Shown: positions 4,274 through 62,916, counted from the stretch's first letter. The stretch is 64,000 nt of DNA from an uncultured Acidobacteriaceae bacterium (GCA_963816705.1 CAWFLZ010000010.1:153157-217156), one strand, 5' to 3'. Notes: generated from the letters alone by a model not told the origin. A program made the numbers and translations.

Positions 4274-6787
4274 ATGGCGACTTCGACTCGCAATGCAGCG
4301 GGGACTCGGGGACTTGCGACTTCCGAACCCAGTGAGGATTTTGAACGCGAACGGGTGTTTGGACTGTTTCGGCAGTTTGGCTATCTGGAAGCCGAACTGA
4401 ATCCGCTGGGGCTTTTGCCTCCGCAGCCTCATCCAGACCTGCGGTTTGATAACGGCAAAGACAGCGAACCGGCCCGCGAGGCGCGGCGGATTTATTGCGG
4501 CAGCGTGGGCGTCGAGTTCATGCACATCGCCGACTCCGAACGCCGGCGCTGGATCCAGGAGCGCATGGAGGCCGAACCGGCTGAGGTCGACCGCCAGCGC
4601 GCTCTCGATTTGCTGATGCGCGCCGATCTCTTCGAGCAGACTCTGCAGCAGCGCTATCTCGGGCAACAAGCGATTTTCGCTGGAGGGCAACACCTCTCTG
4701 TTGCCGGCGGTGGATGAGATTCTGGACGTAGCCGGCGAGCGGGGCGCGCTCGAACTGGTGATGGGCATGAGCCATCGCGGCCGCCTGAACGTGATTATTC
4801 ACGTGGCCACGCGGCCGGCGGAAGAGGTGTTTGCCGAGTTTGAGGATGTCGATCCGCGCAGCGTGCTCGGGTCGGGCGACGTGAAGTATCACATCGGCGC
4901 GACCGGCGAGTATGTTACGAAGAGCGGAAAGAAAATTCACATTCATCTGGCGTCGAATCCCAGCCACCTCGAAGCGGTCGATCCGGTGACGGTGGGCCGC
5001 ACGCGCGCCAAGCAGGATCGTTCCGGCGAAGGTGGCCGCGCGAAGTTTTTGCCGCTGCTGGTGCACGGCGACGCGGCGTTTGCGGGACAGGGAATCACGG
5101 CCGAGACGCTGAATTACGCGGACCTGGCGGGTTACACGGTGGGTGGAACGATTCACTTGATCGTGAATAACCTGATTGGCTTCACAACCAACGCGCGCGA
5201 CGAGCATTCATCGCGTTTTTCGGCGCAGTTGGCGCGGCGGCAGGCGATTCCGATTTTTCATGTGAACGGCGAAGATGTGGACGCGGTTATCCGCATTGCG
5301 CGCCTGGCGGCGGAGTATCGCTACACCTTCGGCAGCGATGTGGTCGTGGATTTGATCGGATACCGTCGCCACGGCCACAGCGAAGTCGACGATCCCACGG
5401 TGACGCAGCCGCTGATGTACAAGGCGATCAAAGAGCATCGTCCGCTCTTTGAGATTTACGCCAAGCAAATCGGCGCGGACAAGTTCGCCGAACAGGCCGC
5501 GGCCATCAAGGCGGGTTCGAGGCCGCGCAGAAAGCGGCTGCGCAAGCGACCAAGAAGCCGCTGCTGCGCGACTTGCCCGGTTACTGGAGCCAATACTTCG
5601 GCGGGAGATACAAGGCTGAGTATGAACAGCCCACTGGCCTATCGCGCGAGGAGTTGGCGGCGTTAACCGCGCGCCTGACCACTTACCCGGAGGGATTTCA
5701 TATCCATCCCAAGGTAAAGAAGTTGCTGGAGCAGCGCGCGGAGATGGGGAATGGAAAGAAGCCTCTGGATTACGGCATGGCCGAGGCTCTGGCGTTTGCG
5801 AGCTTGGTGAAGCAGGGAATTCCGGTGCGCATGAGCGGCCAGGATTCACGGCGCGCAACTTTTAACCAGCGGCACTCGGTGCTCATCGATACCGAGAATG
5901 AGAATGAGTATGTTCCGTTGTGCCACATTGCCGACGGCCAGGCTCCTTGCCAGATCTACAACTCCCCGCTCTCGGAGGCAGGCGTGATGGGATTCGAATA
6001 CGGCTACAGCCGCGATTATCCCGAGGCGCTCGTGTTGTGGGAGGCGCAGTTCGGAGATTTTGCGAACGTCGCGCAGGCGATCATCGATCAGTTTGTAAGC
6101 GCGGGCGAGGATAAGTGGGGCCTGCTCTCGGGCCTCGTGCTGCTCCTGCCACACGGCTACGAAGGCCAGGGGCCGGAGCATTCGTCGGCCCGCATCGAGC
6201 GATTTTTGCAGCTCGCTGCGCGCGACAATTTCCAGATCTGCCAGCCCTCGAACGCCGCGCAATATTTCCATCTGCTGCGGCGGCAGGCGCTGCGTCACTG
6301 GAGAAAGCCGCTGGTCGTGTTTACGCCCAAGAGCATGTTGCGCAATCCCGATGCTCTGTCTCCGCTGGAAGATCTGACCCATCAGCGGTTCTTGCCGGTG
6401 ATTCCAGATAACGAGGCGCAGGACGCGAAGCGAATCTTGATCTGCACCGGCAAAATTGGCCATGAACTGCGCGCCGAGCGATTGCGGCGCAAGGATATGA
6501 GCACGGCGATTGTTTTCCTGGAGCAAATGTATCCCTTCCCGGAGGCCGAGATCGCAGCCGAATTCGAGCGCCACCGCACGGCCCGCGATATTGTCTGGGT
6601 GCAGGAAGAGCCGTCAAATATGGGCGCGCTCTTTTACATGCTGCCGCGACTGAAGAGAATTGCGGGTGATCGGCCGGTGCTTTCGGTGAAACGATCGGGC
6701 AGCGCGAGTCCGGCAACGGGATCGGCGAAGGCGCATGAGGTGGAGCAGAAAACGATTCTCGCGCTGGCGTTTACGACGCAGGGGTAG
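4274..6787 (+). pseudogene. sucA: 2-oxoglutarate dehydrogenase E1 component (SucA), split into three frames by two 1-bp indels
   Basis: ORFs 4274..4717, 4701..5666 and 5573..6787 each read as genuine SucA. The GQKRFSLEG motif is broken by an extra C near 4667 (caaCaagcga). A T is missing near 5517 (ggtttcgag reads ggttcgag). The N- and C-terminal segments are in the same frame and the middle 870 bp is in another frame. Confidence 0.85.
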
Positions 6788-6798
6788 AAAATTTCAAC

Positions 6799-7140
6799 CT
6801 AGCTTCGCGTGAACATTTCGACCAGCGTTGCACAGGCCGATTGAGCCGTTGTGTTCGTTACCGTTCCTAACTTTCGCACTAATCTTTGGCGATCCACTGA
6901 ACGAAGCTGATCCAGCGCAATTTGCCCACTCTTACCCTGGAAGCGAACCAGGACTCGTGTGGGATAAGACCGTATCGTGCTCGTCAAGGGAGCGATAATG
7001 ACAGTTTGCACCTCGTCATTTATCTCGTCGGGCGAAACGACCAGACAAGGGCGGACCTTTTGAATTTCCGAGCCCCGCGTAGGGTCTAAATCGACCAGCC
7101 AGACCTCATCCCTGTGCGGCGCACGGGCTACCACGTCCAC
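6799..7140 (-). CDS. mazF: MazF/PemK-family endoribonuclease toxin
   Basis: 113 aa with the PemK/MazF fold signature (VWLVDLDPTRGSEIQKVRPCLVVSPDEIN). It overlaps the upstream antitoxin ORF by 13 nt. Confidence 0.85.
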   Translation of the reverse strand: MDVVARAPHRDEVWLVDLDPTRGSEIQKVRPCLVVSPDEINDEVQTVIIAPLTSTIRSYPTRVLVRFQGKSGQIALDQLRSVDRQRLVRKLGTVTNTTAQSACATLVEMFTRS

Positions 7141-7388
7141 TCCTCATCGTCGAACGCATTCGGAAAGTCAGGAAGCACAACATCGTCGGGAATTGCCGAA
7201 CCGGCTGCGCGGAAAGCCTCGCGCCACCCCGCGCGTGGCTTACGGTCAGGGGAAACGATCAAACGGTCGTTCTCGACGCGTAACTCGACGATTTCCCGGA
7301 AACCGCACTGCTCGATGAGGGGTTTGGGAATTCGGATGCCGCGGGAGTTACCGATTCGGACGAGCTCAGCTTTCATGAACGCCTCCAC
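7128..7388 (-). CDS. mazE: MazE/AbrB-family antitoxin (SpoVT/AbrB swapped-hairpin domain)
   Basis: 86 aa. AKVVRIGNSRGIRIP is the AbrB/MazE DNA-binding motif. It sits immediately upstream of, and overlapping, mazF. Confidence 0.8.
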   Translation of the reverse strand: MEAFMKAELVRIGNSRGIRIPKPLIEQCGFREIVELRVENDRLIVSPDRKPRAGWREAFRAAGSAIPDDVVLPDFPNAFDDEEWTW

Positions 7389-7528
7389 GCCTTGGTAATT
7401 ACATTGTATCTACTGACGGGGCGCGACGGCAAGCGTGGTTGGCGGTCGACTAGTCCCTCGGAAACAAAGAAGGCCCGGCGCTCAGCCGAGCCTGCCTTAT
7501 CCAAGCTATCTATTGTTCCATGAACGCT

Positions 7529-7777
7529 CTAAGGCCAGCGTTTGGCGGCGTCTTCCCATCCCGCCGCTCGTGCCGGAGGATTTACGGCCTGCGCGGCAAC
7601 TGGCGCGGGAATGCGAATCGGTTGCTGCGGAGTCGTAAGCGTCGGCTTCGGCGCCTCAGATATCGATTCCTTCTCTTCCGAGAGCAGCGGGGCGGCGACG
7701 CGCAAGGCTTCTACTTCCTTTTCCAGCCTGGTTAGTTCGAGTTCTTTCTGACGGAGAACTTCGTACACATTTTTCAT
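7529..7777 (-). CDS. Small hypothetical protein, N-terminal coiled coil and Pro-rich tail
   Basis: 82 aa (MKNVYEVLRQKELELTRLEKEVEALR...). An aagg SD-like sequence lies about 9 nt upstream. It is co-oriented with and downstream of the GAF protein gene. Confidence 0.4.
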   Translation of the reverse strand: MKNVYEVLRQKELELTRLEKEVEALRVAAPLLSEEKESISEAPKPTLTTPQQPIRIPAPVAAQAVNPPARAAGWEDAAKRWP

Positions 7778-7949
7778 TCTTCGGCACCTTTTGATCGTGC
7801 AAACAGTTAAGCGCAGACTATGAGTTTTGGCCGCTATTTGTCAAGGAAAACGGTACTGACTAGGGTGGCACTTGCGAGCCACGACCCCCTTCGCTCGCCC
7901 GCCCCACCGCCTCATGGTCGACGAAACTCGTGGTCAATGAAAATGGTGG

Positions 7950-9332
7950 TCAACGAAAGAAGACCAGCGCTGCGACCAACACCATTGCCACCAAAACCAG
8001 GAAGGCTAATAAGTTGACATGCCTCGCCAGCCATGATTCTTCAACTAACTGCGGGTTGGTCAAGAAGGGCGGCAGGATTTCTTCTTGAGTTGCGGCGACG
8101 GACGATTCTGCCGAGTGATCCTCTTCAGTCTCCTTTGGACTTGTCTCATCTTGTTTTGCTTTCTCTTCCGTCTCCGCCGCTTTTAGCCCGGAACTCGCAT
8201 CGGCGGTGGTCGCTTCGATTGGGCGAACTTCCAGCGCCGCTTTTTCGCGAACCTTCCTGTCGGATTCGATCTTCATACGCTCCAGGCTCTCGCAATCAAG
8301 ACAGAGCGTCCTGCCTTCGGAGACGGGGAATCCGCAGGAGGCGCATTTCTGAACGCGACGCATGGCTTCCGGAACGGGAACCGGTTCCGGGAGCGTGGCT
8401 TCAATGACGCGAGCCGGAATGACTGGCACCGGCAGGTTCAACGCACTTTCGGCTGTGGGCACGGCTTCCGGCGTCGACGTTTCGACGTGCGCCATGGGCA
8501 TAACCTCCGGCGCTTGCTCAGATTTGGAGAGCGCAGGAACAGCAACGGGTTCAGCGCGAAAAGGGGACACGCGCTCCTTGCCCTCAGTCCCAGGGCGAGG
8601 TGATTGCGAGGGAGTCTCCCTCGGCGGATAGCTTCCGGTAGAACCCGTCGACGCTCCTGCTGGCCGCGTTGGCTTTGCAGTCGTCGCCGGCGGAGTCACG
8701 GAATCGTGCTGTTGTTCGGCCAGATCCAGCGCCGTCAGCGTGAGCGCAGCCATGCGCTCCAGCGCGACCAGGTCACGCTCTTCGAAAGCGTAGGGATGAT
8801 CGGAGAACAATTCGAACAGGCCGCGTACCTCGCCCGTCCGCCGCAGCAGCGGCAGAACAACGATCGAGGCGATGCCCAGCGCCTGGCAGGTTTCCAGATT
8901 CACCCGTGGGTCGGTCTCTGCGTTGTCGCAGCGCAGCAACTGCCGGCGGTTGATGCTTTCGCCGGTTAGCCCCGAGCGGACCTGCAACCGCGCGCCCACC
9001 GAGGGCGCGCAGGCTCCGGCACTGGCCCGGCAGACCATTTCGTCTCCCTGAGGCAGGGCGAGCGCGGTTCCGGTGGCCCCGGTGATGTATTGGGCGCGCT
9101 CGACCAGCAGCTGGAGCGCAGCTTCCAGTTCCCGCTCCTCGAGGTTTGTGCGACCTTGCAGACCGCTCGGGAGATCGGAGTACGGCGATCTGCTGTCAGG
9201 AACCGCGTGGCCAAGACGCTCGGATAGAACCTGGTCGTCGGACTGGGGGGATCCGGTCATGATTCGGTTCGGCGCGACCTTCTGCTGGCATAGCCTGACG
9301 TGGACGGGCGTGGTCGCCGTCTTTCTATTCAC
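7950..9332 (-). CDS. GAF-domain protein with C-terminal zinc-ribbon and a single C-terminal TM anchor
   Basis: 460 aa. GAF-like region (GATGTALALPQGDEMVCRASAG ... LFELFSDHPYAFEERD), Pro/Thr-rich linker, CASCGFPVSEGRTLCLDCE zinc ribbon, acidic stretch, then a hydrophobic tail LLAFLVLVAMVLVAALVFF. The real start may be an internal Met. Confidence 0.7.
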   Translation of the reverse strand: MNRKTATTPVHVRLCQQKVAPNRIMTGSPQSDDQVLSERLGHAVPDSRSPYSDLPSGLQGRTNLEERELEAALQLLVERAQYITGATGTALALPQGDEMVCRASAGACAPSVGARLQVRSGLTGESINRRQLLRCDNAETDPRVNLETCQALGIASIVVLPLLRRTGEVRGLFELFSDHPYAFEERDLVALERMAALTLTALDLAEQQHDSVTPPATTAKPTRPAGASTGSTGSYPPRETPSQSPRPGTEGKERVSPFRAEPVAVPALSKSEQAPEVMPMAHVETSTPEAVPTAESALNLPVPVIPARVIEATLPEPVPVPEAMRRVQKCASCGFPVSEGRTLCLDCESLERMKIESDRKVREKAALEVRPIEATTADASSGLKAAETEEKAKQDETSPKETEEDHSAESSVAATQEEILPPFLTNPQLVEESWLARHVNLLAFLVLVAMVLVAALVFFR

Positions 9333-9533
9333 GCTTACAGAAGGGCCTGAACCGAGTCTCGCCTTGGGAGCTTAAGGTGTCAAGCGCCGTTGGAGACAGA
9401 CTTTCGGGAGCAAATGGTCTCCGGTGAGGTGGGCTGAGCACATCGAGGGGACTACCGTGGGAAGAACCCGCAGCAGGCTGCGGCAATGCAAGTTCGCAGC
9501 ACAACCGGTAACGGCGGGAACGTGAGGCGGGAA

Positions 9534-10078: not shown

Positions 10079-10810
10079 CTACCGCGACTGTTCGTCTTTG
10101 TGCCGCAGCCACTCGATGAACATCTGCTCCTTCGGTTTGTCGTAGGCCATGAGCAGGTGGCGGATGCTGCGTCCGCTGACGAAGTGGCAGACTTCTTCGG
10201 CCAGGTTCTTGGCGTGGTCGCCGGCGCGCTCGAGCGATTGCGTCATGAAGATGATTTGCAGGCTGGCGCGGCGTTCGAGGTTTTCGGGATTTTCGATGTG
10301 GCGCAGAAAGATCAGGTTGCGCAAGCGATCCATCTCGGCGTCGGCGCGCAGCACTTCGATGGCTTTCTTGACGTCTCGCTGGGAAAAAGAATGGCCCACG
10401 TCGGCCAGCATTTTTTCCAGAATGGTCGCCATGTGAGTCAGGTCGCGCGCATCCTGCGGATCGATCTGCGCCCCGGCGGCCTGAGCGCTGGTGGCAAAAC
10501 TCAGCAGCAAGTCACCGATGCGCTCGAGGCCGATCATGAGCTTCATGCAGGCCAGCAAGTGGCCGGTTTCCTCCGGCGGAGCTCGGGTGATGATCCGGGT
10601 CACATCGGAGTCGACTTCGAGGTCGATGGCGTCGAGATCTTTTTCGCACTGCCGGATGGCATTCAGGCGTGACATGGAGCCGGTGGCAATTCCCTCGGCG
10701 GCGATGGCGGCGGCTTGGCGCGCCAGTTCACACGCTTCCACGGTGCGCTTGACAAGGTCAGCGCAGTCCGGTTCGGAAGGCGTTTTCATGCTGGCTGTGC
10801 TCATAGGCAA
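10079..10810 (-). CDS. phoU: Phosphate-specific transport system accessory protein PhoU
   Basis: 243 aa, two PhoU repeats (ERIGD, ERAGDHAKN). Confidence 0.9.
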   Translation of the reverse strand: MPMSTASMKTPSEPDCADLVKRTVEACELARQAAAIAAEGIATGSMSRLNAIRQCEKDLDAIDLEVDSDVTRIITRAPPEETGHLLACMKLMIGLERIGDLLLSFATSAQAAGAQIDPQDARDLTHMATILEKMLADVGHSFSQRDVKKAIEVLRADAEMDRLRNLIFLRHIENPENLERRASLQIIFMTQSLERAGDHAKNLAEEVCHFVSGRSIRHLLMAYDKPKEQMFIEWLRHKDEQSR

Positions 10811-11101
10811 AACCGCCCACCCATTAGATGCCAGACTTTCCCGGAGGACGCCCGGTTTCCATTTCTCGGGTTCTTAATTCAAAGTGTGACACACACACCC
10901 ACGAAAGCATAATCCCCGTTGCCGCGAGGCAAGTTAAGAGACGGTGAATTTCAGGTCGTCGAATCGGCAATTACACCCGCAGGTGACCGGCAGGCGATCG
11001 TCAGCGACTGAACTCGGCGCGTTTTTCCCTGTTGCAAAACCCTCGAAATGATCGGGTCTCAACTATATCGCTCATCGGGCTCCGCGGTTCAGTGCCGGGC
11101 A

Positions 11102-12980
11102 CTACGCCGCATCCCCCTGCGAAGCAGGCAGGACGAACAGGAACGTCGAGCCGTGATTCAGTTCGCTTTCCGCGCGGATGGTCCCGCCGTGCGCGAACAT
11201 GATGTGCTTGGCAATGGCGAGGCCAAGTCCCGTGCCTCCCGATTCGCGGGAGCGCGCCTTGTCGACGCGGTAGAACCGTTCGAAGAGCCGCGGCACGTGC
11301 TCGGACGAGATGCCGGGACCGAAATCGCGGACGTAGAACTCGACGGCGCCAGCGCTCGAACTGGAATCCGAAGACTCCTTTACAGCCGCTGGGCTCGGTG
11401 CGGTTTCAACCGCGGTGACACTGGATGTGCCCCCGCCCGCCGCTGCGCTCGCTGCCCCCGCGGTTGCCGCAACTGAACCAGAAGCCAACGGCACGCCGGG
11501 TGACGGCCGCGCTCCGAGAATGATTTTCTTTCCCGACGCCGCATACTTCAGAGCGTTCTCAATCAGGTTGGAAAATACCTGGTGGATCGCTTCCCGATCG
11601 GCGTTTACGTTCGCGTCCGCTGCCGCGTTTTCGACGACGAGCTCCACTCCGTAGGAGCGGGCGACTTCGCGAAAACTTTCGAGCGCATCCTGAAGCAGTT
11701 CCTCCGTGCTGACTCTCTGAATATCAAATCTCTGTTCGCCCGATTCGACGCGCGCGAGCGTTAGCAGATCCTCAGTCAGCCGCGCCATGCGGGCGGCATT
11801 CTTGCGGATGATCTCCAGAAAATCGCGCACGTGATTGTCGCTGACCCCACTGTCGAGCAGCGTCTCGGTATATCCCTGAATGGAAGTCAGAGGAGTGCGC
11901 AGTTCGTGGGAAACGTTGGCGATGAAATCGCGGCGCGTTTTTTCCATGCGCTCGGTTTCGGTAAGGTCGCGCAGCACGGCGACCACGCCGCCTCCGGGCA
12001 TGGGCGCGGCTGTCACGTCGAAGGTGCGTCCGGCAGTGATGGTAATCGCGCGCGCCGAGGTCACGACCTGATCGCGCGCCGCTTCCTGAACGGCAGCCAG
12101 GAAATCCGGGTCGCGGACGCTATCGATCAGCGGCGCATCGAGACGAGGATAGCGGCGCAGCAGACGCGCCATGCCCCGGTTAGCCCATTGCACGCGTCCA
12201 TCCGCGCCCACCGCGAGCACCGCGTCCTGCATGCTGTTGAGGAGCGTTTCCAGTTCGTGCTGGCTGGTTTGCAGGCGGGCGAAGCTCTCTTCCACGCGGC
12301 GCGCCGTTTTGTCGAGTGCGGCCGCAACTTGCCCGATCTCATCGCTGGAAGTCGCTGCGATTCGGGCGGTCAGGTCGCCGGCCGCGATGCGCTCGGCAAA
12401 ATTTACGATGCGCTTCAGCCGCCGTCCGCAGACGTTGAGAAGTGACTGCCGCAATTACGACCGCGAACGGCGAACGCTATCAGCGATCCCCATAACAACG
12501 CCTTTGCCAGCGGGCGATCGGTGGTTTCAATTTCGGGCAGCGGATAGGCCAGCCGCACCGCGCCTCCGGAAACCGGCGCGGCCACATACAAGAAAGCGAC
12601 ACCCAGTTGTGGCTCTTGCGTTCATCCACTCCCACCGAGCCGCCGAGCGCGGCCGCGAACTCTTTGCGATGTGCTTGATTTTCCATCGTGCTGGCATCGG
12701 CTTCAGAGTCGGCCAGCACCTTGCCCGGTCGGATCGATGACGGTGGCCCGGGCTCCCGCTGCCTGACCCTCCTGCGAAGTGATGTCGGCCAGCGAATGCT
12801 GGCGGTCGGCCTCGACGCGATAGGCAAACATCAGCGTCTTCTGCTTTGAGGTTGCGCTCGATCTGCTCGTGCAGAGTGTGCTGCCAGACGTTGCGCACAG
12901 TCCATTGAAGAGTGATGGCGGTGACGCGCAATCACGACCAGGAACACAACCATCAACTTGAAGAAGATGCGAGGTCTCAA
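11102..12980 (-). pseudogene. phoR: PhoR-like sensor histidine kinase (TM-sensor-TM-HAMP-PAS-HisKA-HATPase); the N-terminal sensor region is broken by five or more 1-bp indels
   Basis: 11102..12454 is an intact HAMP-PAS-HisKA (SHELRTPL)-HATPase ORF. Upstream at 12455..12980 there are TM1 (MVVFLVVIA), a PhoR-type periplasmic fold (VIDPTGKVLADSEADASTMENQAHRKEFAAALGG..VGVDERKS...VAFLYVAAPVSGGAVRLAYPL) and TM2 (LLWGSLIAFAV), spread over three frames (ORFs 12480..12827 and 12527..12931). Confidence 0.85.
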
Positions 12981-13679
12981 CGCGGAACCTCGAAGCGGTA
13001 GCCGGCTCCGCGGACCGTCTTCAGGTAGCGCGGATTCTCGGGATCGGGCTCGATTTTTTCGCGAATACGCCGCACATAGACGTCGACCGACCGTGGAGTG
13101 ACATAGGCCGTATCGCGCCAGACGGAATCAAGCAATTGGTCGCGCGTAAAAACGCGACCGGCGTGGCGCATGAAGTAATCAAGCAGCCGGAATTCGGTGG
13201 CAGTAGTCGGCACCTGCTTGCCCCGAACGGTCAAGGTCATGGCCGAAGGATCGATGTGAACGTCTTCGATCTTTGTAGGCAAAAGTGGCAACGGCCGCTC
13301 GAATCGACGCATGACCGCTTTCACGCGGGCCACAAGTTCGCGCGGACTAAACGGCTTGGGGATGTAGTCATCCGCGCCCAGTTCGAGCCCCAGGATGCGA
13401 TCGGCCTCGCCGCCCTTTGGCCGTCAGGAAAATTACGGGAACAGACGCGAGCGCGATCGACTGGCGGATCTGGCGGCAGAGCTCAAGCCCATCTTTTCCA
13501 GGCACCATGATGTCGAGCAGAAAGAGCGCAGGGCGCTGCCGCTCGGCATCGGACACGACCAGGTTCCCGGTCGAATAGAGCCGCACATTAAAGCCGGCGC
13601 CTTCCAGGTGATGGCGCACCAGGCGCGAAATATCCGGATCGTCTTCCACGACGAAGAGTGTTGGTTTCACGGGCACCAT
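12977..13679 (-). pseudogene. phoB: OmpR/PhoB-family response regulator, receiver and winged-helix domains separated by a 1-bp insertion
   Basis: The receiver domain ORF is 13368..13679 (FVVEDDPDISRL...LDIMVPGKDG...IFLTAKG) and the trans_reg_C ORF is 12977..13333. An extra G near 13414 (aaaggGcggcgag) breaks ...[26 protein letters not shown].... Confidence 0.85.
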
Positions 13680-14322: not shown

Positions 14323-14730
14323 TTAAACGGAACTCATTCCTGGGAACCTGTATAGTTCCAGCCCCGCGAGGCGCGCGATTCTGGAAAAATCCCGGTCGAG
14401 GGTGAAAACGCTCGCGCCATGTTCGAGCGCGATCGCTGCAATCAGCGTGTCGATGGTAGCCAGCGTTACGCCCTTGCCCCGCGCAAGTCTGTAGAGGTCC
14501 GCCGCTCTGCGGTACGTATCAAATCCCCCGGGCTCCAGCATGTCCCACTGTTCCAGAAACCGTTCGATTGGTGCCGAGTCTCGCGTCAAGCCTTGTAAGA
14601 TTTCGGCGACCACGATCCCCGTGAGGGCGAAGGGCTCGCTGTCTTCGATCATTCTGCGGAGTTCGTCTCCGGCGCGGCTGGGAGAAGAACTGAAGAAGTC
14701 GACCCACACCGAGCTATCCACCAGGATCAC
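14323..14730 (-). CDS. vapC: PIN-domain ribonuclease toxin VapC
   Basis: 135 aa. MILVDSSVWVDFF... has PIN acidic residues (D5, E, D, D) and a 4-nt overlap with the upstream antitoxin. Confidence 0.85.
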   Translation of the reverse strand: MILVDSSVWVDFFSSSPSRAGDELRRMIEDSEPFALTGIVVAEILQGLTRDSAPIERFLEQWDMLEPGGFDTYRRAADLYRLARGKGVTLATIDTLIAAIALEHGASVFTLDRDFSRIARLAGLELYRFPGMSSV

Positions 14731-14945
14731 ACCCGATTTCTCCGCGACCGCTTCAGATCCCCCTGCCAGATCCCGCTCCCGTAGTAACGGAGAATGCCCT
14801 TACGGCTCTCGGAACGAACCAGCAGATCGAGCGCCCTGTCTACAATTTGGCGTTTTGTCTTGAGGCGCGTGAGCTTGCGCGCTTTCCGGATCAAGCCATC
14901 GTCAATTTCGATATTCGTCCTGCTCACGAAGATACTATACACCAT
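14727..14945 (-). CDS. vapB: VapB-family antitoxin
   Basis: 72 aa. RTNIEIDDGLIRKARKLTRLKTKRQIVDRALDLL is the typical VapB N-terminus. The start codon is embedded in a 7-bp inverted repeat. Confidence 0.75.
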   Translation of the reverse strand: MVYSIFVSRTNIEIDDGLIRKARKLTRLKTKRQIVDRALDLLVRSESRKGILRYYGSGIWQGDLKRSRRNRV

Positions 14946-24508: not shown

Positions 24509-25361
24509 TCAGGATTTGACTTCAGCGTGGGCGCGTTGCTTCGGGTGTCCTCCCGGCTTCGATTCGTCGCGGGAGTGCGCAACATCGTGAACCAGTCCGC
24601 CATAGCGCCGTTCGCGCTTTTGATATTCCTCGATGCCTTCGAGGAGTTGAAGCCCGCGGAAGTCGGGCCACAAGGTTTGCGTCACGTAGATTTCGGCGTA
24701 GGCGAGCTGCCAAAGTAGAAAATTGCTCAGCCGCATTTCTCCGCTGGTGCGAACGACCAGATCGGGATCGGGCAGGTCACGGGTGTAGAGATTTTCGCTG
24801 ATCGATTGTTCCGTCGACTTCGAGGTGGTTGACGCCTCCGTTGCGGGAGGCAGCTTCGGCAAGGGCGCGGAAGGCGTCAACGATTTCACTGCGCGCGCTG
24901 TAGTTGAGCGCGAGCGTCAGGATCATTCCAGTGTTCGCGGCAGTTGCTTCACTCGCTTCCGCCATTTCGCGTTGCACGACCTCAGGCAACTCATGCTGGC
25001 GCCCGATGTAGCGCAGGCGAATATTGTTTCCGTTGAGCGTCTTGATTTCAGCCTTAAGGTAGTGGCACAGCAAGCGCATCAGGAAATCGACTTCGGACTT
25101 AGGTCGCTTCTTCCAGTTCTCTTCGGAAAAGGCGTAGAGCGTGAGCGCAGGGATCCCGATGCGAGCCGCGGTTTCTACCGTCGAGCGCACCGCGGCGACA
25201 CCAGCGCGATGTCCGGCGATTCGCGGCAGATGACGGCGGCGAGCCCAGCGCCCGTTTCCGTCCATGATGATCGCGATGTGCCGGGGAAGCCGCGCCGGAT
25301 CGAGCCGCAGGTAAGCATCGCTTTCCTTGCGGTCCATGCCAGCCGGGACCGTGTGTCGCAA
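24509..25361 (-). pseudogene. uppS: Undecaprenyl-diphosphate synthase UppS, 1-bp insertion
   Basis: ORFs 24777..25361 (HIAIIMDGNGRWA, the catalytic N-terminus) and 24509..24889 ([18 protein letters not shown]). An extra G near 24811 breaks ...[13 protein letters not shown].... Confidence 0.85.
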
Positions 25362-27613: not shown

Positions 27614-27699
27614 ACGCGCGGGCCAGATCTGGGCAGGTTAGCACAAGGGTTGTGCGGAGCGGGCGCCCACGTGCGCGGGGACTGTCCGAGCAGCCTTGC

Positions 27700-39708: not shown

Positions 39709-39789
39709 ACGAATACTGTAGCCTGTCGCTTAACACTTGTCAAACCTGCGGAGAGTCGTTTTGCCGTGCGGCTGCGGCGAATCCCGTCC

Positions 39790-46269: not shown

Positions 46270-47398
46270 TCAGTGCTTGAACGCAATATTCAAGCCCGTC
46301 GAAATCTGCAGATCGTTTCTCTCAATGCGCGGTACAGCGATCGGAGGATTACTGACGAATACGTCAGTCACGGAGTTCTGCCATCCCAGCCACTTGTTAA
46401 GTTTGGTGACCGTTCCCAAGTTGAATGTGAAACGATATTGCGACGTGTCGCTCAGGTCGGGATAGAACATGAAAGCCTGTGTGACCACCGTGCTCTTGCC
46501 GAGCTTATGCGTGAATGCGTCACCGAGAGTCAATGCGGCCAGGCTTTGGGAATAGGAATAGGTAGCCGGAGGCGGATTGGGGCTCGCAACTTCGCTGTAG
46601 CTTTCATGCGTGTAGTTGCCGCCGACCAGGATGTCGAGCATGGTATAGGCATTCTTGATCGCGTGAAAGCCGATGCCGCCGCCCAGAATGTATCGCAGAT
46701 CCAGGTCTTGCAGCGAATTGGAGAAGAAGTCAGCGCTTCCAAAACCGAAGGCTCGCGGGATGAAATCGCGGTCGTAGCGAGCGCCGCCGCTGTTGGAGTC
46801 GGCGGTGGTTTGCGGCCCGGTCGCGGGCGCCACAACTTTGTCGTTCACAGCATAGACCGAGTTCTCATAAAGAGTGAGTTTGTCGTGCGCTCCCGTGCGC
46901 ACGGCATTCAATGCAACGTTCAAATTTTTGGTTTCGCTGTTTCCCGTCGTCACTCCGAAGCCCAGATTGACGCCACCCGCCCAGCCTTCTCCCCAGCTGG
47001 GATGCAAAGTCTTCTGATAGGCGGCTTCTTCGGCCGGACTGCGCATCACCGTTACAGACGAGAGCGGGGCCTCAACCGACGCCGGCGGCCTTGGTGGTTA
47101 CGATTACATTGGCACCGCTCGTTGCGACCGGGCCAACCGCCGTTTTGCCGCCCGCTGTCACGTTCAGGTCGCCAGTCGAACTGAGAGATTGGATCTCGTC
47201 GAATTTGATGGTCAAATCGCCTGCATAATCTGTTTTGAGCACGAGCGTTTTGCCATCGGATTTGGTGATTGATCCGGTTAGCTTGTCGCCGTTCTTCATG
47301 ACGACCTGGTCGGCAAGCGCCGGAAGTGCAAATAGAAAAAGAAGGCCTACTGCGAATTGGCTACGCACAGAAATTCTCCTCGATGAATTGAACCGCAA
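46270..47398 (-). pseudogene. DUF481-family outer-membrane beta-barrel protein, 1-bp insertion
   Basis: ORF 47072..47398 (signal peptide plus MKNGDKLTGSI, the DUF481 N-terminus) and ORF 46270..47049 (beta-barrel). An extra T near 47065 breaks ...AAGVGEAPLSSVTV.... Confidence 0.75.
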
Positions 47399-50584: not shown

Positions 50585-51740
50585 CTAGCGCAAGGGCAGG
50601 CTCGCTTCGGCGGAGAAATCGATCGGAGCAAATTCCTGGCGCAGAAATTTTGGAAAGGCAGCGGCGGCGATCATCGCCGCATTGTCGGTGGAAAGAGGCC
50701 GCGAAGGGAAGAAAACGGGAAGGCCTTGCATCTCCGCTTCGCGCTGAAAGGTGGCGCGCAGTTCGCGGTTCGCGGCTACGCCGCCGCTGACGAAGAGCGT
50801 GCGAACCTCATATTCGCGCGCGGCAGCCAGCGTCTTGGTTACGAGGTCGTTCACCATGGCGCGCTGGAATGACGCCACCAGATTGAGCGTCTGGCGATCG
50901 CACAGGCGCAGATAGTCGTCCAAGGTGGGATTAACGATCTCCTGTAGAGATTTTCGCCGCCGCCTCGATCGCCGGCTGTAGTCGCTCGGTTTCAACGTAG
51001 CGCAAAACTGCCGTCTTGATTCCGCTGTAGGAAAAATCAAAACGTGGACGAGCGTCCGACGATGAAGTGTGCATACTGCGGTCGTTGCGATCGCGATGCT
51101 TGATTTGCGCAATCTGGAATTTGACGGCGTGTGGATCGCCGCGCGGAGCGAGCCGATCAATGATGGGACCTCCGGGATATCCGAGCGCGAGGAGTTTGGC
51201 GACTTTGTCGAAGGCTTCGCCGGCGGCGTCGTCGCGGGTGTGGCCGATCTCGGCGTAGGTCCAAAGATTCTTGTCGACCTCGGCGAGATAGAGATGCGTG
51301 TGGCCTCCCGAAACGACGAGGGCGAGAACCGGGAATTCCAGCTCAGGATTTTCGGCCTGTCGCTGCTCTAGCAGTACAGCGTGCACGTGGCCTTCAAGAT
51401 GGTTGACCGCTATCAGCGGTTTGCCGAGTGCAAACGAAAGCGCCTTGGCGAAGCTGATGCCGACCAGCAACGCGCCTGCTAAACCCGGACCTTGCGTGAC
51501 GGCGATGGCATCGATGGAGTCGTAAGTGTGTCCAGCCTCAGCGAGCGATTGGCGCACGACTGGAATGATGGCGTGCAAATGCTCGCGGGAGGCGAGTTCG
51601 GGCACAACTCCGCCATAAGGCTGATGGGTGGCGATTTGCGAGGCCACGACGTTCGAGAGAATCTGCTCTCCCGCGCGCACCACGGCTGCGCCTGTTTCGT
51701 CGCAGGAGCTTTCGATGCCGAGGATGATGGCGTCGGGCAT
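50585..51740 (-). pseudogene. tsaD: tRNA N6-adenosine threonylcarbamoyltransferase TsaD (Kae1/Gcp), 1-bp homopolymer insertion
   Basis: ORF 50931..51740 (N-terminal two-thirds: [18 protein letters not shown]) and the 3' part of ORF 50585..51160 ([18 protein letters not shown]...VSGGVAANRELR...STDNAAMIA). An extra A in an A-run near 50962 breaks ...[17 protein letters not shown].... Confidence 0.9.
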
Positions 51741-53726: not shown

Positions 53727-54146
53727 TCACCTCGCGATTCTCTTCCCGCCTGCGGCAAAACCAGTCTTCCGTTTGCCGCCGCCAAATGTCTGACGCTTTT
53801 TATCGTCCCTGAGGCGGACAGCCGTGGGCGTAGAAGAGCCGACAGCAGCGGCGAACGCGGCGGGATTCAGCGCAGTGAGCACGGCAGCGGGATTCTTGTC
53901 GATGACAGTGAGCAAAGTGCGAGCCGGAGCTTCTGGGCTCCTTCGCCCGCCCTCCCAGTGCTTGATAGCGTCAAGGCTGAATCCGAACGTGTTGGAGAAT
54001 CTGGCTTGTGTCATGCCAAGGCGATTTCGGATCGCTTTCACGTCAACCTCCTCGGGCACATGCGCCTTGAATCCTTCTTGCTCCCCAGCAAGGAAAGCCT
54101 CAACGTCGTTCAGGCCATTCATCATCTGCGCGAATTGCGTTTTCAT
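53727..54146 (-). CDS. XRE-family HTH antitoxin (HigA/DUF4415-like) of a RelE/HigB-like TA pair
   Basis: 139 aa. HTH around IRNRLGMTQARFSNTFGFSLDAIKHWEGGRRSP, with a C-terminal basic tail. Its start abuts the toxin stop. Confidence 0.7.
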   Translation of the reverse strand: MKTQFAQMMNGLNDVEAFLAGEQEGFKAHVPEEVDVKAIRNRLGMTQARFSNTFGFSLDAIKHWEGGRRSPEAPARTLLTVIDKNPAAVLTALNPAAFAAAVGSSTPTAVRLRDDKKRQTFGGGKRKTGFAAGGKRIAR

Positions 54147-54161
54147 GCTATCTCCCTGGGT

Positions 54162-54529
54162 TCAGAAAATGCCCTCAAAAATGCTATCGGCCCGTTTCCT
54201 GAGTGTGTTGCGCTCTGCCATGGACAGATTTTCTTTCTCATTCTTCGGAAAAACCGCAATGAGAAAAACCGGAAATCTCTGGTTGCGCCAGATATACACA
54301 ACCCGGGCCCCGCCGCTTTTCCCCATCCCTTTGCGTGCGACTTGGACCTTTTGCGTGCGACTCGGACCTTTCGAAACCCGCCCGTTCCACGGATCACGTC
54401 TCCACGCTCCGGGTCAGCCGCAACCAGTGCCACGATGTCAGCACGCTCCTCCTCGCTAAAGAGCCTGTTGGCAATCGCGAGGTAAGTAGGCGTTTCGACA
54501 ACCGTCTGCACAATTCTCTTGTACTCCAT
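54162..54529 (-). pseudogene. RelE/HigB-superfamily toxin (GKSGGxRViY type) inactivated by a 20-bp tandem duplication
   Basis: N-terminal frame MEYKRIVQTVVETPTYLAIANRLF...GGFRKVRVARK. Downstream frame GMGKSGGARVVYIWRNQRFPVFLIAVFPKNEKENLSMAERNTLRKRADSIFEGIF. The two are joined if one copy of ttgcgtgcgacttggacctt (54331..54350) / ttgcgtgcgactcggacctt (54351..54370) is removed. Confidence 0.7.
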
Positions 54530-54595
54530 TGGACACCATGAGTCAAGTGAATTGTGTGCCATTGGACACTAATGGTTTAGGAGCGCTTGGGTTAG

Positions 54596-55784: not shown

Positions 55785-58700
55785 CTAAGTCAATACAAAT
55801 CGCAGAAGTTCTGGAAACTTCTTTTCCGCGGATAGGACACGGATCTGCGCGGGTGATTCGAAACCTATTCCTCGTTCTGATCCCGGTCTTGCGAGTTGAC
55901 TGCGGCGGGATCGGCTGGGATTGGTTTTTGCAGATCGATCGGCGGGCTGGCCGGCTTTCTTCAGCTCCTCATTCAGTTGCGGAACATCTTTTGATTTGAG
56001 TTGAGACCACGCTGCCAACTGTTCATCGAGCGCCTTTTCCACTTCTCCGAACATTGAGACCTCCTGCGTGGTGGGGGCGGCGTCGGCGGTATCGAGTTGG
56101 GCTAGCATCGTGCCCAGGCCTCCATTGAGGCGGGCCAGGCTGCGGCCTTCGGGCGTGCTCAGGAAGCGAGAGCCATAGCCGCCTTCGCTGCCTTCGATGG
56201 CCGCGGCTTTGGCGTCGAGACTCTTGATGGATTCAGCCAGCGGGGATGGCGGATTCTTCGCGCTCGCGGCTTTCAGTTGCGAGCGCAGGCTGCGCACCTG
56301 TTGCAGGGCTTCATGGTCGCGGTGGAGGGCGTCGGCGATTTTGCGGTCGAGGTCGAACTGGCGGCGGAGGTCTCTCGGGCAAGGTTTTCACGCGCGGGTC
56401 CATGTGGATTTCGAGGGGCTGCGTGTAGGTTTTGCCATCGGCCGTTAGCTCCAAGCTGTACTTGCCCGGCAAAACCTTGGCGCCCTCCGGGTAGAGCGGA
56501 GTGTCGTGAGGGATCGCGGAGATCGGGAAGTCGCGACTGAGCAGGTCGGGAACTGGATAGGTCAGGTCCCAGACGAAGCGGTGCATGCCGGGTGCGGCAG
56601 ACAGTATTCGCGGCGGGCGCACCCAGTACATCGGGACGTTGAAGTCTTTGGGATTAATCGGCTCGGGCTTGTCCGTGCTGGAGAAGCGGCGTACTAGCTT
56701 GCCGCTTGCATCTAGATTTCAATGACGACTGCGGGAGTCGCGTCCTTGAGCCAGTAGTCGATCATTGCGCCATCGGGCGGATTCTGGCCGGCGGGCTCTT
56801 CGGGTGGAAGCGGCGTGTCGGGATTGTTGTCGCGGCGCAGGCGATAGGTCAACGGCGGCTTGAACAAGTGGGCGGGGCTCTGCGGCAATCTTCGCGTCGA
56901 GCTGGCGCAGCGGCGTGATGTTGTCCAAAATCCAGAACGACCGGCCGTGCGTGCCTACTACCACGTCGTCGTTGTGGACGACCAGGTCACGAATCGAAGT
57001 GGGCGGCAGATTCAGCTTGAGCGATTGCCAGTGGTCGCCGTCGTCGAATGAAACATAGACGCTGCGCTCGGTTCCGGCGAAGAGCAGTCCTTTGCGTTCG
57101 GGGTCTTCGCGGACGGTGTTGACCGGTTCGTTATCGGGCAGGCCGGTCACGATCTTCTGCCAGGTCTTGCCGCCGTCGTGGGTGCGGTAGATATATGGAT
57201 GCAGGTCGTCGAGGCGGAAACGATTGACTGCGGCGTAGGCGGTTGCGGTATCGAAGTGCGACGCGTCCATCTGCGCTACCTTGCTCCAGGGCGTCAGATC
57301 AGGCGGAGTTACGTTTTGCCAGTTCTTGCCGGCGTCATGAGTTACTTGAATCAGGCCGTCGTCGGTGCCGACCCAGATCAGGTTGGCGTCTTTGGGCGAG
57401 GGTGCGATGGAATAAATCACGCCGCGATGCTTGCCTTTGGCGGGGTCGTCGTCAACGAACGCGCCTAGCGATGGAGGGACGCCGGCGTCGTCTTTTGTTA
57501 GATCGCGCGTCAGGTCTGGGCTGATGATTTGCCAGCTGTTGCCGCCATCGCGCGTCACGAACAAGACGTTCGAACCCAGATAGAGCGCGTGCTGATCGAC
57601 GGGCGAGAAAATCAGCGGCGCGGTGCGGTTGAAGCGGTACTGGCCGGTGCGGAGGACTACTGGGCCAACCTCGCGCGTCTGGCCGGTGTTGCGGTCGAAC
57701 ACGGTAACTTTGCCGCCGTAGATCAGATTCGGATGCAGCGGATCGGGCGCGACGTAGCCGTATTCTTCTACGCCGAGAGTGGTCCAGTCGCGAAAAGTGA
57801 TTTCGCCGAAGTCGCTGCGGCTGGCGGTGCCGACCGAGCCGCTTTCCTGCTGCCCACCGTAGACCCAATAGGGAAACTGGTTGTCGGTGATCACGTGATA
57901 GAACTGCGCTGTCGGCTGGTTATACCAACTGCTCCAGTGTCTGCCGCCGTTCACGCTGATGGTTGCGCCCTGGTCGACGGCGATGGCGATGATGTCGGGA
58001 TTTTCGGGATTGATCCAGATGGTGTGATAGTCGTCGCCGCCGGGCGCGCCCTTGATGGCGGTGAAATTTTTGCCGGCGTCGGTGGAACGGTAGGTGGACG
58101 TGTTGGCCACGTAAATGACGTCTTTGTTTCTGGGATCGACGCGGACGCAACCAAAGTCGTCGCCGCGGCCGTAGATGCGCTCTTCGCTGTTGACCTGCTG
58201 CCAGGATTCGCCGGCGTCGTCGGAGCGGTAGATGCCGCTGCCTAGCTTTGCATTCGGCTTCGTTACGTTGGACGTCGTTACGTTAACCCATGCATACATG
58301 CGTTCGGGATCGCTGGGGGAGATGGTTTGGCCGATGCGGCCGATGCCTTCGGCTTCGCCGGGCAATCCTTTGGTGAGTTGACGCCAGTTGTTGCCGCCGT
58401 CGGTCGATTTGTAGAGACCGCTGCCGGGGCCGTTGTAGGCGCCGCCGGTCGTCCAGGGCGGACGGCGCGAGGACCACATGCTGGCGAAGATTACCTGCGA
58501 GTTGCGAGGATCGAACGTCAGATCCATGCCGCCGACGTTCTCGTCTTTGTAGAGAACCTTTGTGAAGGTCTGGCCGCCGTCGAGCGAGCGGAAGATGCCG
58601 CGCTCGGCGTTGGGGCCGTAGGGATGGCCTTGGGCGGCGACGAAGAGGCGGTTGGGATCTTTGGGATCGACGATGATGGAGGCGATTTGCTGGGCGTCGC

Positions 58701-59154
58701 GCAGGCCGAGGTGTTGCCAGGTGCGGCCGGCATCGGTTGATTTGTAGATGCCGTCGCCGACGGAGAGATCGGGACGGCGCAGGCCTTCGCCGCTGCCTAC
58801 ATAAATGATGTCGGGATTGGAGGGCGCGACGGCGACGGCGCCGATGGAGCCGGTGGGCTGGTCGTCAAAGATTGGGTTCCAGGTACGGCCGAAGTCGGTG
58901 GACTTCCAGACTCCGCCGTTGTTTGGGGCCATGTAGAAAACGTTTTGATGGCCGGGGATGCCGGAGATGGAGACGGTGCGGCCCGCACGGAAGGGGCCGA
59001 TCATGCGCCAGTGGAGATCCTGATACAGCGAGGGATCGAACTGTTGAGCGCGAACGGGAGCGATGCAGATTCCGCCGATGAATGTGAGGACGATGAGAAG
59101 AAGCCGAATCTTGATCCAGAGTTGCGATTGTCGTTTCAAGGATGTACCCCCCAC
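55785..59154 (-). pseudogene. Large BNR/Asp-box repeat beta-propeller protein (sortilin/VPS10-like, GH74-like), C-terminal third fragmented by three or more indels
   Basis: ORF 56719..59154 has a signal peptide and more than 10 SxDxGxTW motifs. Its C-terminus continues in other frames through ORF 56311..56631 (MYWVRPPRIL...) and ORF 55785..56297. Shifts lie near 56712, 56380 and 55930. An alternative frame gives a plausible natural end, ...KKAGQPPIDLQKPIPADPAAVNSQDRDQNEE. Confidence 0.75.
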
Positions 59155-60236: not shown

Positions 60237-61504
60237 CTAGTTCACATGCGTTGTGTAGATATGGCCGTTAAATGATGCGTCGTAGCCTGCGCACCAGATC
60301 TGGTGGCCGGGTTTGACCGTCCTCTCAGCGCAGGCGTCCATCTCGGATCCGGTGTTCACGTCGAGCGACCAGGTGTTCCCGCCGTCATTTGAGAAGTAGA
60401 TCCCGCCCACGCCGGTGTAGATGTTGCCGCCGGCGGCCCAGCCCGTTTTCCGGTTCAGGAATAGAACTTCGCGGATTGGCCACGGGCCGTCGAGAGTGCG
60501 TCCGCTCCAGGTTGCTCCGCCGTCGGTCGTTGTGTGGACCCAGCCTTCTACGTTGGGCGAAATCTCGCCGCCGGCGACCCAGCCGTCTTTATCATTGTTG
60601 AGGAAGAAGACCTCGCCGTCGAAGACCGAGTCGACGCTCGGGACTGCAACTCCACGCTGCGCCAGCGGTCGTGCTGCTGCAGAAGTCCACGCCGCTCGCG
60701 CGGGCATGCGAATTTTTCAGCAAGCTGAACTCCAGGCCAAACCAGCCGCCGTCGGTATCGTCGACCACCGTGCTCCAATCGGTCGCTGCGGCGTCCGCCA
60801 TCGGCGGTGTACTGCGCTGTGTTTTCCGCGCCGTTGATCAGATCCAGGATTAAGCCGTTCTTTTTCAAAAAGCGGACGCGCTGTACCCAACCGGTGTTGG
60901 TTAAGACGATGTCACTGCCCCACGTCTGGCCGCCATCGTGGCTCCAGCGAATGAAGCCATAGAAGGTTGACGAGTCGTAGAAGCCGGAGGCCACTATGTT
61001 TTTCGCGTTGATCGCGTCCACGCCATAAAAATAGTAGGGATAGCCCAGGTTCAGCGCCTCCGTCCACTTCGCACCGCCGTTGGTCGTCTTCCAGATCTGG
61101 CCGCCTTCCGCGACGGCGTAACCGACAAGCGCGCTTGAGAATGAAATGTCGTGGATCACCGCGCCCGGAATCGTGGCCTGCAACGTCCAGGTGTTGCCGT
61201 TGGGCTGCGTATGCACTTGCGGCATTGGAGTAGGCGCGACATAGGGCCGGTCGGCGGAGAGCTCGGTGCTCGCACCCTGGACCGGGACCGTTCCCGAGAC
61301 GTGGTGGACCTTGCCGGGAACGGTGGCCGAATTCTGCGCGATTGCCTGGAGGGAGACGCACACGGCTAAGAGAAGAATGAAAACAGACACGCGAAGAACG
61401 TTCACGGAAGACCTCCTGGGTGAGGGTGCCGGCGAAGGAAATTCGTTGCTAGCCAGCCTGAAGCGGAGTCTAGCATGGCATAGTAGGCGCGGCAATCGCG
61501 GCAC
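60237..61504 (-). pseudogene. Ycf48-like / BNR-repeat photosystem-II-stability-factor-like beta-propeller protein, two frameshifts
   Basis: ORFs 60548..61504, 60592..60801 and 60237..60707 read consecutively as one propeller (...GGQIWKTTNGGAKW..., ...SHDGGQTWG..., ...TDGGATWS..., ...SNDGGNTWS...) across three frames. Confidence 0.7.
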
Positions 61505-61531: not shown

Positions 61532-62394
61532 TTAGGCGCTCATGGATCGCAGCGCTGTCAGGTACCGTTGCAGGGCATCCTGCCAGGGGGGCATCTGAAT
61601 TCCGAGGTCATGCAAGCTTGCGGGCGAAAGGACCGAGTAGGCTGGGCCGTTTTGCCGGTCGCGGGAAGTCGGCGGTAGTTACCGGTTTAACCGTAGCGGG
61701 CAGCCCGGACATGCGCACGATTTCCTCTTGCGAACTCATACCAGGTGCAGTCGCCGGAATTCGTTGCATGGACGATGCCACGCGCCCCTTGTTTGCAGAG
61801 TTGCGCGATCGTAGAGGCCAGGTCGCGCGCGAAGGTCGGCGAGCCGTATTGATCGTTTACTACCGAAAGCTGCGGCATGGCATTCTCTGCTTTTGGCGCG
61901 GCTAGTTTCAATATTGTGGCCGGGAAACATTTTCCACCGGGGCCGAATAGCCAGGAGGTTCGCACGATGCAAACGTCCGGCAGAATTCTGAGGAGTTGCT
62001 CTTCGGCGCGCGCTTTAGTTTCGCCATAAACATTGATGGGATGGCGGGTATCCCCGATTTCGTACGGCGATCCCTTTGCGCCGTCGAAGACGTAGTCCGA
62101 ACTTAGGAATAGCAACCGGGCGCTTGCGGCCCGCGCCGCAGACGCGACATTGACCGCGCCCTGGTGGTTGACGGCGAATGCCAGCTCACGATTCGTTTCG
62201 CAACCATCTACATCGGTGTAAGCCGCGGCGAGAATGACCCAGTCTGGGCGGGAATCGCGGATTACCTGCTCACGCGCGCCTGATCGCGTATGTCGGTGTC
62301 GCGGGAAGAGAGCGCGGTGAGTTGCTCCTCGCTCAAGGCCTGCACGAGTTCCTGACCGAGCAGTCCTGAAGCCCCGAATAGCGTGATGCGCATA
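61532..62394 (-). pseudogene. rfbD: dTDP-4-dehydrorhamnose reductase RmlD/RfbD, three or more 1-bp indels
   Basis: True N-terminus MRITLFGASGLLGQELVQALSEE... (start 62392..62394). There is a shift near 62278 before ...VIRDSRPDWVILAAAYTDVDGCE. The central part is intact in ORF 61687..62457 (YGETKARAE, the catalytic YxxxK). The C-terminus is broken again near 61745 and 61640 (...WYEFAREIVRMSGLPATVKPVTTADFP...). Confidence 0.85.
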
Positions 62395-62465
62395 GCGGCA
62401 TTGTAGCCGGGATCGGCTGATTACTAATGGCGACGCGGACTCTCTTGGCGCGCGCAAAAATCGTT

Positions 62466-62497
62466 ACCACAGAGGACACAGAGGAGAACACGGAGGA
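62466..62497. repeat. CACAGAG/CACGGAG-type short repeat element copy
   Basis: ccacagaggacacagaggagaacacggaggag. Related to 13749..13780 and to the reverse complement of 45099..45140. Confidence 0.45.
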
Positions 62498-62500
62498 GAT

Positions 62501-62916
62501 TCACTCGGAGGGATTCTGGGCATTCCGAGGAGCTTGCCGCCGGAGCGCGTGCAGAATGAGCGTGCCGCTGATTCCGAAACATCCCACGGCGCCGAATGCC
62601 ATGGCATCCAGCAGGGGGCGCGTCAGGTGCAGGTAGTCTCCCATCAATGATGTCGCGGCGAATAGCACGCCGAGAATGTTCAACCATAGAGGAGATCGAA
62701 CTTCCGGCAGGTCCCGGCGAAATCGAAGCTGAAGCAAGAGTGCGGCGAGGCCGATCGCCGAGACACACCACGAGCGCGATTGGGCTGAGAAAAGCGCTTG
62801 GGCGCGTGTAGATCACCACCAGCGCGAGCGCGAGGACCAGCAGGCCGGAAGCGATCACGGTCCATCGGCGCGTCGCGCTCGAACTCGGTTACCGGGTGAT
62901 CACCCTGCGTCGACAT
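62501..62916 (-). pseudogene. Small membrane protein (DUF202/YidH-like?), fragmented over three frames
   Basis: ORFs 62680..62916 (MSTQGDHPVTEFERDAPMDRDRF), 62424..62858 (TM IASGLLVLALALVVIY) and 62501..62737 (two further TMs) look like one ORF of about 140 aa broken by indels. The call is weak. Confidence 0.3.

Follow-up and report, generated by a model that had tools for sequence, protein, structure and literature searches.

Frameshifts across conserved genes of a soil Terriglobales metagenome-assembled genome: probable strain-collapse indel errors in a long-read consensus

About 16 conserved genes are broken by small lesions in the deposited sequence of a 64,000-nucleotide (nt) stretch, here called the window (G+C content, ∼59%), which is part of a 357,861-bp contig from a soil metagenome-assembled genome (MAG) of the Terriglobales (Acidobacteriota). 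Fifteen of these genes had been listed in an initial annotation of the sequence, and an HDOD gene is added here. We conclude, with a probability of roughly 0.88, that the window consensus carries insertion and deletion (indel) errors arising from strain collapse in a long-read assembly and that neither homopolymer error nor pseudogenization is the explanation. In the organism itself, the sucA, phoR, phoB, uppS, htrA, rmuC, flotillin, DUF481, tsaD, BNR, Ycf48-like, rmlD, and membrane-protein genes are almost certainly intact.

Conserved genes broken in the window and intact in its relatives

Two almost identical contigs, referred to as siblings, were found by exact protein look-up, both in ENA assembly ERZ25039558. 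contig_113169 (61,955 bp; loci L001, L003, L008, and L009) spans window positions 15053-64000, and contig_135610 (8.8 kb; locus L004) spans positions 654-9467. Their identity to the window is 99.2 to 99.8% across 57,762 aligned bp. The window region from 9.5 to 15 kb lies outside sibling coverage; there, the relative L010 (GCA_049300195.1, ∼86% identity) was used, with L016 (contig_97407 of the same ERZ25039558 assembly, ∼90% identity) as a second relative for the phoR sites, and the phoR and phoB lesions were compared only with these relatives at 86 to 90% identity. L005, L010, L012 (a Stordalen Mire MAG), and L016 served as outgroups. Base-level lesion positions were taken from alignment to the near-identical siblings or to one close relative, and gene splitting was detected by Pfam scans of adjacent stop-to-stop frames. 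Genes were called by homology because a frame plot of G+C at third codon positions (GC3) and a codon-usage gene caller were too noisy, with a training set contaminated by shadow open reading frames (ORFs); both were dropped.

The broken genes and the affected spacers are as follows.

∼3301-4149, plus strand: HDOD/HD-domain gene; +1 insertion at 3347, a gap in sibling L004; absent from the earlier list and outside its range.
4274-6787, plus strand: sucA (2-oxoglutarate dehydrogenase E1); three frames, with +1 at 4664 and -1 at 5512.
12425-12927, minus strand: N terminus of a phoR-like histidine kinase; 8 private indels (6 insertions, 2 deletions) in ∼500 bp.
12977-13679, minus strand: phoB-like response regulator; split by a single +1 insertion at 13413.
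24509-25361, minus strand: uppS; split by a +1 insertion at 24815.
25535-26600, minus strand: htrA/DegP-family protease; split by a +1 insertion at 25856.
28341-29692, plus strand: rmuC; split by two +1 insertions, at 28982 and 29068.
31268-32719, minus strand: flotillin; lesions at 31277-31567, namely, +1 at 31567, +2 at 31369-70, and +1 at 31305, 31280, and 31277.
46270-47398, minus strand: DUF481; split by a +1 insertion at 47081; intact in the sibling (365 amino acids [aa]).
50585-51740, minus strand: tsaD; split by a +1 insertion at 50959.
55785-59004, minus strand: BNR/Sortilin-Vps10 repeat protein; +1 at 56375 and 56882, a complex -1 at 56712, and a -1/+1 pair at 57936/57941.
60237-61405, minus strand: Ycf48-like BNR protein; +1 at 60639 and +1 at 60794; intact in the sibling (388 aa).
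61532-62393, minus strand: rmlD; +1 at 61643, +1 at 61724, and -1 at 62269.
62501-62916, minus strand: 137-aa membrane protein; +1 at 62766 and +1 at 62887; intact in the sibling (137 aa).
30964-31266: two short spacers around a 58-aa ORF; nine inserted bases, none inside the ORF.
45056: intergenic spacer upstream of a CN_hydrolase gene; +1 insertion.
63860-63868: intergenic spacer; +1/-1 pair.

All 15 genes on the earlier list were found to be disrupted, each at or within ∼20 bp of the coordinate given for it; the remaining two, a DUF72 gene and a RelE-like toxin gene, are treated below. For sucA, phoB, uppS, htrA, DUF72, rmuC, and tsaD, adjoining ORF fragments match consecutive segments of one Pfam family. 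Single intact ORFs for sucA, HDOD, uppS, htrA, rmuC, flotillin, DUF481, tsaD, BNR, Ycf48-like, rmlD, and the membrane protein are present in the siblings. Sibling 2-oxoglutarate dehydrogenase E1 (SucA, 837 aa; NF006914, 1052 bits), UppS (275 aa; NF011405, 328 bits; TIGR00055 is also named for UppS), TsaD (384 aa; TIGR03723, 386 bits), and RmlD (286 aa; TIGR01214, 295 bits) score over the curated NCBIfam cutoffs. The HDOD product is intact at 282 aa in both L004 and L010, HtrA is intact in the sibling (347 aa) and in L005 (363 aa), and RmuC (449 aa) and the BNR/Sortilin protein (1072 aa) are intact in the sibling. In L005, L006, L010, and L012, L013, and L015, gene calling gave one full-length ORF of the expected size for each corresponding gene.

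In the compared regions, every lesion is missing from the siblings apart from the DUF72 stop and the duplication in the RelE-like toxin gene, and L005, L010, L012, and L016 agree with the sibling at every tested site. L010 (PhoR intact, 622 aa) and L016 concur against the window at each of the 8 phoR indel sites. At the spacers at 30964-31266, L012 is without the inserted base at every unambiguously aligned position, part of the flotillin-side spacer being too diverged in L012 to judge. For the broken N-terminal TsaD fragment (window 50931-51740, P0062), the 357,861-bp source is the single contig listed.

As had been proposed from the sequence, the shifted segments still encode conserved protein. 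Indel-corrected window TsaD, UppS, and RmuC are 100% aa identical to the sibling proteins, both window PhoB halves are 100% aa identical to L010 PhoB (230 aa), and with the indels removed, 11 of 12 corrected window genes are free of stop codons. In flotillin, the +1 at 31567 and the +2 at 31369-70 together leave a stretch of 66 codons in a shifted frame, after which the correct frame is regained, as originally described; a suspicion that this gene had been misread, raised by an open 501-aa minus-strand ORF, was dropped after alignment with the sibling. That window ORF keeps Band_7 and has lost the Flot-domain match, which the sibling protein (481 aa) has, and the outgroup L012 agrees with the sibling at the flotillin lesions. 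In the BNR protein, the complex -1 at 56712 creates a TAG, and the -1/+1 pair turns the Asp-box GNTWS into GRHWS.

Essential genes are hit, as the initial annotation stated, since the TsaD (TIGR03723) and UppS (NF011405, TIGR00055) equivalogs are broken; both are essential in most bacteria. Its view that this is not an old degrading genome is borne out by these hits and by lesions that are private relative to siblings at 99.2 to 99.8% identity.

Two further observations concern the phoR region. The end of contig_113169 (L001 1-543) departs from the sibling's match to the window and instead matches window 11724-12264 (phoR HisKA) at 83%; either the contig carries a paralogous kinase there or its end was rearranged or chimerically joined. 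The relatives L010 and L011 have a 533-aa major facilitator superfamily (MFS) sugar transporter between phoR and phoU (L010 8559-10160), where the window has only ∼300 bp (10810-11102).

Base context of the indels and their link to polymorphism

Over the 57,762 bases shared by window and siblings, there are 286 single-nucleotide polymorphisms (SNPs) and 42 indel events. Three of the latter are errors in the sibling contig, one is a three-nt short-tandem-repeat change, and the remainder are private to the window. The private lesions relative to the siblings comprise 35 inserted and 5 deleted bases, a residual indel error rate in the window consensus of ∼0.7 per kb. None of the 35 insertions creates a run of at least three identical bases, and in 28 (80%) the inserted base is unlike both neighbors, against 55% expected for random insertion, a significant difference. 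Homopolymers of at least four bases make up 4% of the window and hold no lesion.

These figures bear on whether a basecaller simply miscounted runs of identical bases by ±1, as the initial annotation had suggested in calling some lesions homopolymer-length changes. Such miscounting has been described as the usual Nanopore error mode (PMC9262707), and 2 of the 8 phoR indels are indeed run-length changes (12724, GG to GGG; 12606, AAA to AA). That part of the suggestion stands; as the mechanism for the window, homopolymer miscounting is very improbable given the insertions described above and given that 5 of 6 insertions in a control contig (see below) are also outside homopolymers.

The indels are closely associated with polymorphic sites. 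The median distance from an indel to the nearest SNP is 14 bp; for random positions, it is 330 bp (0 of 5000 randomizations). Inside SNP-rich blocks too, indels are nearer to SNPs than expected by chance (P of ∼0.003), a test that is only indicative, as some nearest "SNPs" may belong to the same complex error. Almost every indel lies in or beside a SNP-containing block, and genes free of SNPs, which total ∼25 kb and include one of 1160 aa, contain no indels. A motif shared by the insertion sites (e.g., a methylation site) was not found, as no 4-mer survived correction for 136 tests. Programmed frameshifting or another form of recoding that reads through the shifts has in its favor that the shifted segments stay conserved, and nothing else; with more than 40 sites that have no common motif, are missing from a strain with 99.8% identity, and occur in intergenic spacers as well, its probability is practically negligible.

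Strain collapse is the likeliest source of this pattern, in which the errors typically fall within 10 to 30 bp of a real SNP. Reads from at least two closely related co-occurring strains would have been collapsed into one consensus, and read alignments would then conflict around polymorphic sites. The consensus or polishing step could then emit an extra base, possibly by keeping both alleles, with which insertions mostly unlike both neighbors would be consistent. Gene callers would subsequently split the affected genes.

Private frameshifts are not confined to the window. The sibling has its own, in dnaK (two sites, three pieces) and in an amino-acid permease gene, both of which are intact in the window. 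In contig_97407 (∼90% identity), dnaK, phoR, and phoB are split. The ERZ25039558 sample demonstrably contains more than one related lineage. As a control, contig_9287 of ERZ25039466, an accession close to that of the sibling, was compared with three mutually identical short-read-style Stordalen Mire records (GCA_003139095.1 and two from JGI). The comparison gave 89 SNPs and 6 gaps. All 6 gaps are 1-bp insertions in contig_9287, each 3 to 15 bp from an SNP; five are nonhomopolymer, and one extends TT to TTT. They break rmuC (three sites), a Pro_CA_2 carbonic-anhydrase-like gene (two sites), and cdsA (one site), the last of which is essential. Each further contig examined from ERZ25039558 or ERZ25039466 has different private frameshifts (dnaK, cdsA, rmuC, and phoR), and none were found in the short-read-style or polished relatives examined.

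The reverse possibility is that the window is right and that deletion errors in the siblings have by chance restored long ORFs. Long-read consensus is often deletion biased, and the siblings do err in dnaK and the permease gene. This explanation is nevertheless exceedingly improbable: the sibling versions are full length with complete Pfam or NCBIfam coverage, L005, L010, L012, and L016 concur with them, and random deletions would not systematically mend reading frames.

The description of the ERZ assemblies as long read and of the other relatives as short read or polished rests on contig names and the origin of the records. The ERZ, ERR, SRR, and GCA accessions were not found in the literature, including the supplements of the Microflora Danica long-read paper; the platform was therefore judged from the Flye-style contig names, on which basis the source and ERZ contigs are presumably long-read products. 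The Logan contigs that were located (L002 and those from run ERR12040025) span no private lesion.

Shared lesions, selection, and the weighing of genuine mutation

Two lesions on the earlier list differ from the others.

26669-27613, minus strand: DUF72 gene; in-frame TAG in place of Tyr at 26972-26974; same in the sibling.
54330-54371, minus strand: RelE-like toxin gene; 20-bp tandem duplication causing a frameshift; same in the sibling.

Since a nearly identical contig has them too, both are probably genuine. Neither a nonsense substitution nor a 20-bp duplication is a usual consensus error. The proposal that the listed lesions are artifactual or very recent holds in the main, with these 2 of the 15 as probably genuine mutations.

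The DUF72 TAG lies within a SNP-free block; window and sibling have no differences across 26131-28145. L005 has Tyr at the stop position in an intact protein of 315 aa. The 101 codons downstream of the TAG are still almost fully conserved, and this suggests that the Tyr-to-TAG change is probably a real nonsense mutation and a recent one.

The RelE-like toxin gene lies upstream of an MqsA-like antitoxin gene (53727-54146), and the pair spans 53727-54562. The two copies of the 20-bp duplication differ at one base, and removal of one copy restores a RelE-like ORF of 113 to 124 aa. A k-mer-based Logan contig (run ERR12040025) has a 128-aa ORF with a 4-nt overlap with the antitoxin gene, the length that the duplicated version predicts. 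The duplication is probably a genuine mutation that inactivates the toxin, an outcome that is biologically unremarkable. A HigB-like toxin gene at 39418-39708 was considered as the toxin of the earlier list and rejected; it is intact, and the duplicated toxin gene is at 54.3 kb. The HigB-like gene belongs to a second toxin-antitoxin pair at 39418-40000 (HigB-like toxin of 96 aa plus helix-turn-helix antitoxin), intact and identical in the sibling. The window has further pairs, VapBC at 14323-14945 and MazEF/PemK at ∼6.8 to 7.4 kb.

The SNPs between window and sibling comprise 194 synonymous and 70 nonsynonymous changes, and 73% are at codon position 3. The synonymous-to-nonsynonymous counts in broken genes are 34:6 for sucA, 30:4 for flotillin, 8:2 for htrA, 4:0 for uppS, and 28:13 for BNR; rmlD (5:11) and the 137-aa membrane protein gene (10:9) are exceptions, both in one noisy block. 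This variation between the contigs is genuine and subject to purifying selection; frameshifts of the same age would have been purged.

The noisy block, at 62200-62700, has unusually many nonsynonymous differences, including a GGCGGGGGGAT versus CGCCGCGACAT cluster, and may contain substitution-type consensus errors in one or both contigs. In the gap between the membrane-protein gene and rmlD, a short tandem repeat (9- and 12-bp units, 62468-62499) is 3 nt off the sibling, probably a genuine repeat-length polymorphism. Over the window as a whole, divergence from L001, L003, L004, L008, and L009 is a mosaic: difference-free stretches of up to ∼8 kb (e.g., 32.7 to 41.0 kb) alternate with blocks at 1.5 to 3% divergence (sucA, flotillin, BNR, and 62 to 64 kb). 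This mosaic suggests frequent recombination among co-occurring strains.

A genuine and very recent mass pseudogenization of the strain, for example, under relaxed selection or in a mutator lineage producing +1 insertions, would leave lesions such as those in the deposited record. In its favor, the DUF72 stop and the toxin duplication do look real, intact alleles of the exact strain are seen in no other assembly, and real indels can accompany nearby substitutions. We regard this as unlikely by a wide measure. TsaD and UppS are hit despite being essential in most bacteria, the SNPs of the same genes are under strong purifying selection, and the closest relatives have no lesion in common with the window beyond the DUF72 stop and the toxin duplication. 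The 35:5 excess of insertions and their avoidance of repeats are the opposite of the indel spectra generally known for bacteria. Furthermore, compensating +1/-1 pairs wreck conserved motifs, and the ERZ contigs each have different private frameshifts, while short-read-style and polished relatives have none.

A more specific version of genuine mutation holds that the +1 insertions are a very recent burst of nonhomopolymer insertions beside SNP tracts imported by recombination, with ∼15 genes lost, including tsaD and uppS. Error-prone repair synthesis during recombination, for example, would generate such insertions, and the strain would survive through paralogues, complementation by neighbors, or tolerance of ribosomal frameshifts. 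We consider this highly improbable.

Several points weigh against strain-collapse errors. The errors were deduced by comparing contigs and not seen directly in reads, and the long-read platform of the source contig is likewise deduced. Exact look-up of eight indel-corrected window proteins (htrA, DUF481, HDOD, sucA, flotillin, Ycf48-like, membrane protein, and rmlD) in public assemblies gave no match, and thus no independent assembly confirms the intact alleles of this strain. Clustering of indels with SNPs is also known for genuine mutations. Finally, nine inserted bases fall in two spacers (132 bp in total) and none in the 177-bp ORF between them (30964-31305), a distribution for which random error alone does not account; selection on real variants would also give spacer-only insertions. 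Part of the spacer indels may represent true differences between strains or real indel polymorphism that confused the consensus.

The ORF between these spacers (58 aa, ∼31024-31201, minus strand, in the flotillin/pspA gap) is conserved in both the sibling and the Stordalen Mire MAG and has 9 SNPs, 7 synonymous and 2 nonsynonymous. It probably represents a real gene for a small membrane protein in the flotillin/PspA membrane-stress cluster.

Significance and comparison with known systems

If the lesions are strain-collapse errors of the consensus, they are of little importance to biology, and it should be assumed that sucA, tsaD, uppS, phoBR, and the other listed genes are intact in the organism. 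The probable real biology in the window is the DUF72 nonsense mutation and the toxin gene inactivated by a 20-bp duplication. For data users, about one-fourth of the genes in a 64-kb stretch of a public MAG are fragmented, and this skews pathway calls, protein clusters, and the numbers of genes and pseudogenes that are estimated. One cluster in a large public protein collection has the broken TsaD fragment as its representative; in this way, artifacts seed spurious families. The signature is a nonneighbor base inserted beside a strain-polymorphic site, and such errors would escape homopolymer-aware filters but should be caught by reference-guided frameshift correction or strain-aware polishing.

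Recent pseudogene-rich genomes, such as those of host-restricted symbionts and pathogens, are generally known to have many small frameshifts in otherwise conserved sequence, as the window does. In those genomes, however, essential genes are intact, indels are deletion biased and repeat associated, and lesions are common to relatives; the window has none of these features. Frameshift consensus errors in long-read MAGs are a closer parallel, for which the proovframe preprint (10.1101/2021.08.23.457338) is reportedly a named example. Below ∼40-fold coverage, indels in a long-read consensus break up gene calls (PMC9262707). The window resembles such cases (IDEEL-type truncation; PMC9262707) in that 1- to 2-base indels split conserved genes into adjoining ORFs, whose shifted frames still specify the expected protein, and are private to one assembly, being absent from the short-read-style or polished relatives examined. 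It differs from the textbook long-read error, which lies in homopolymers and is often a deletion, in having nearly exclusively insertions of a nonneighbor base, which avoid homopolymers and are tied to polymorphic sites. In collapsed long-read assemblies, nearby allelic variants lead to misalignment and indel errors (PMC8445201). The allele-specific assembly of Trypanosoma brucei provides the comparison: nearby variants misalign, and ORF-truncating indels enter the collapsed consensus (PMC8445201). There, the variants are the two alleles of a diploid eukaryote; here, the same process would have acted on co-occurring strains of a soil bacterium.

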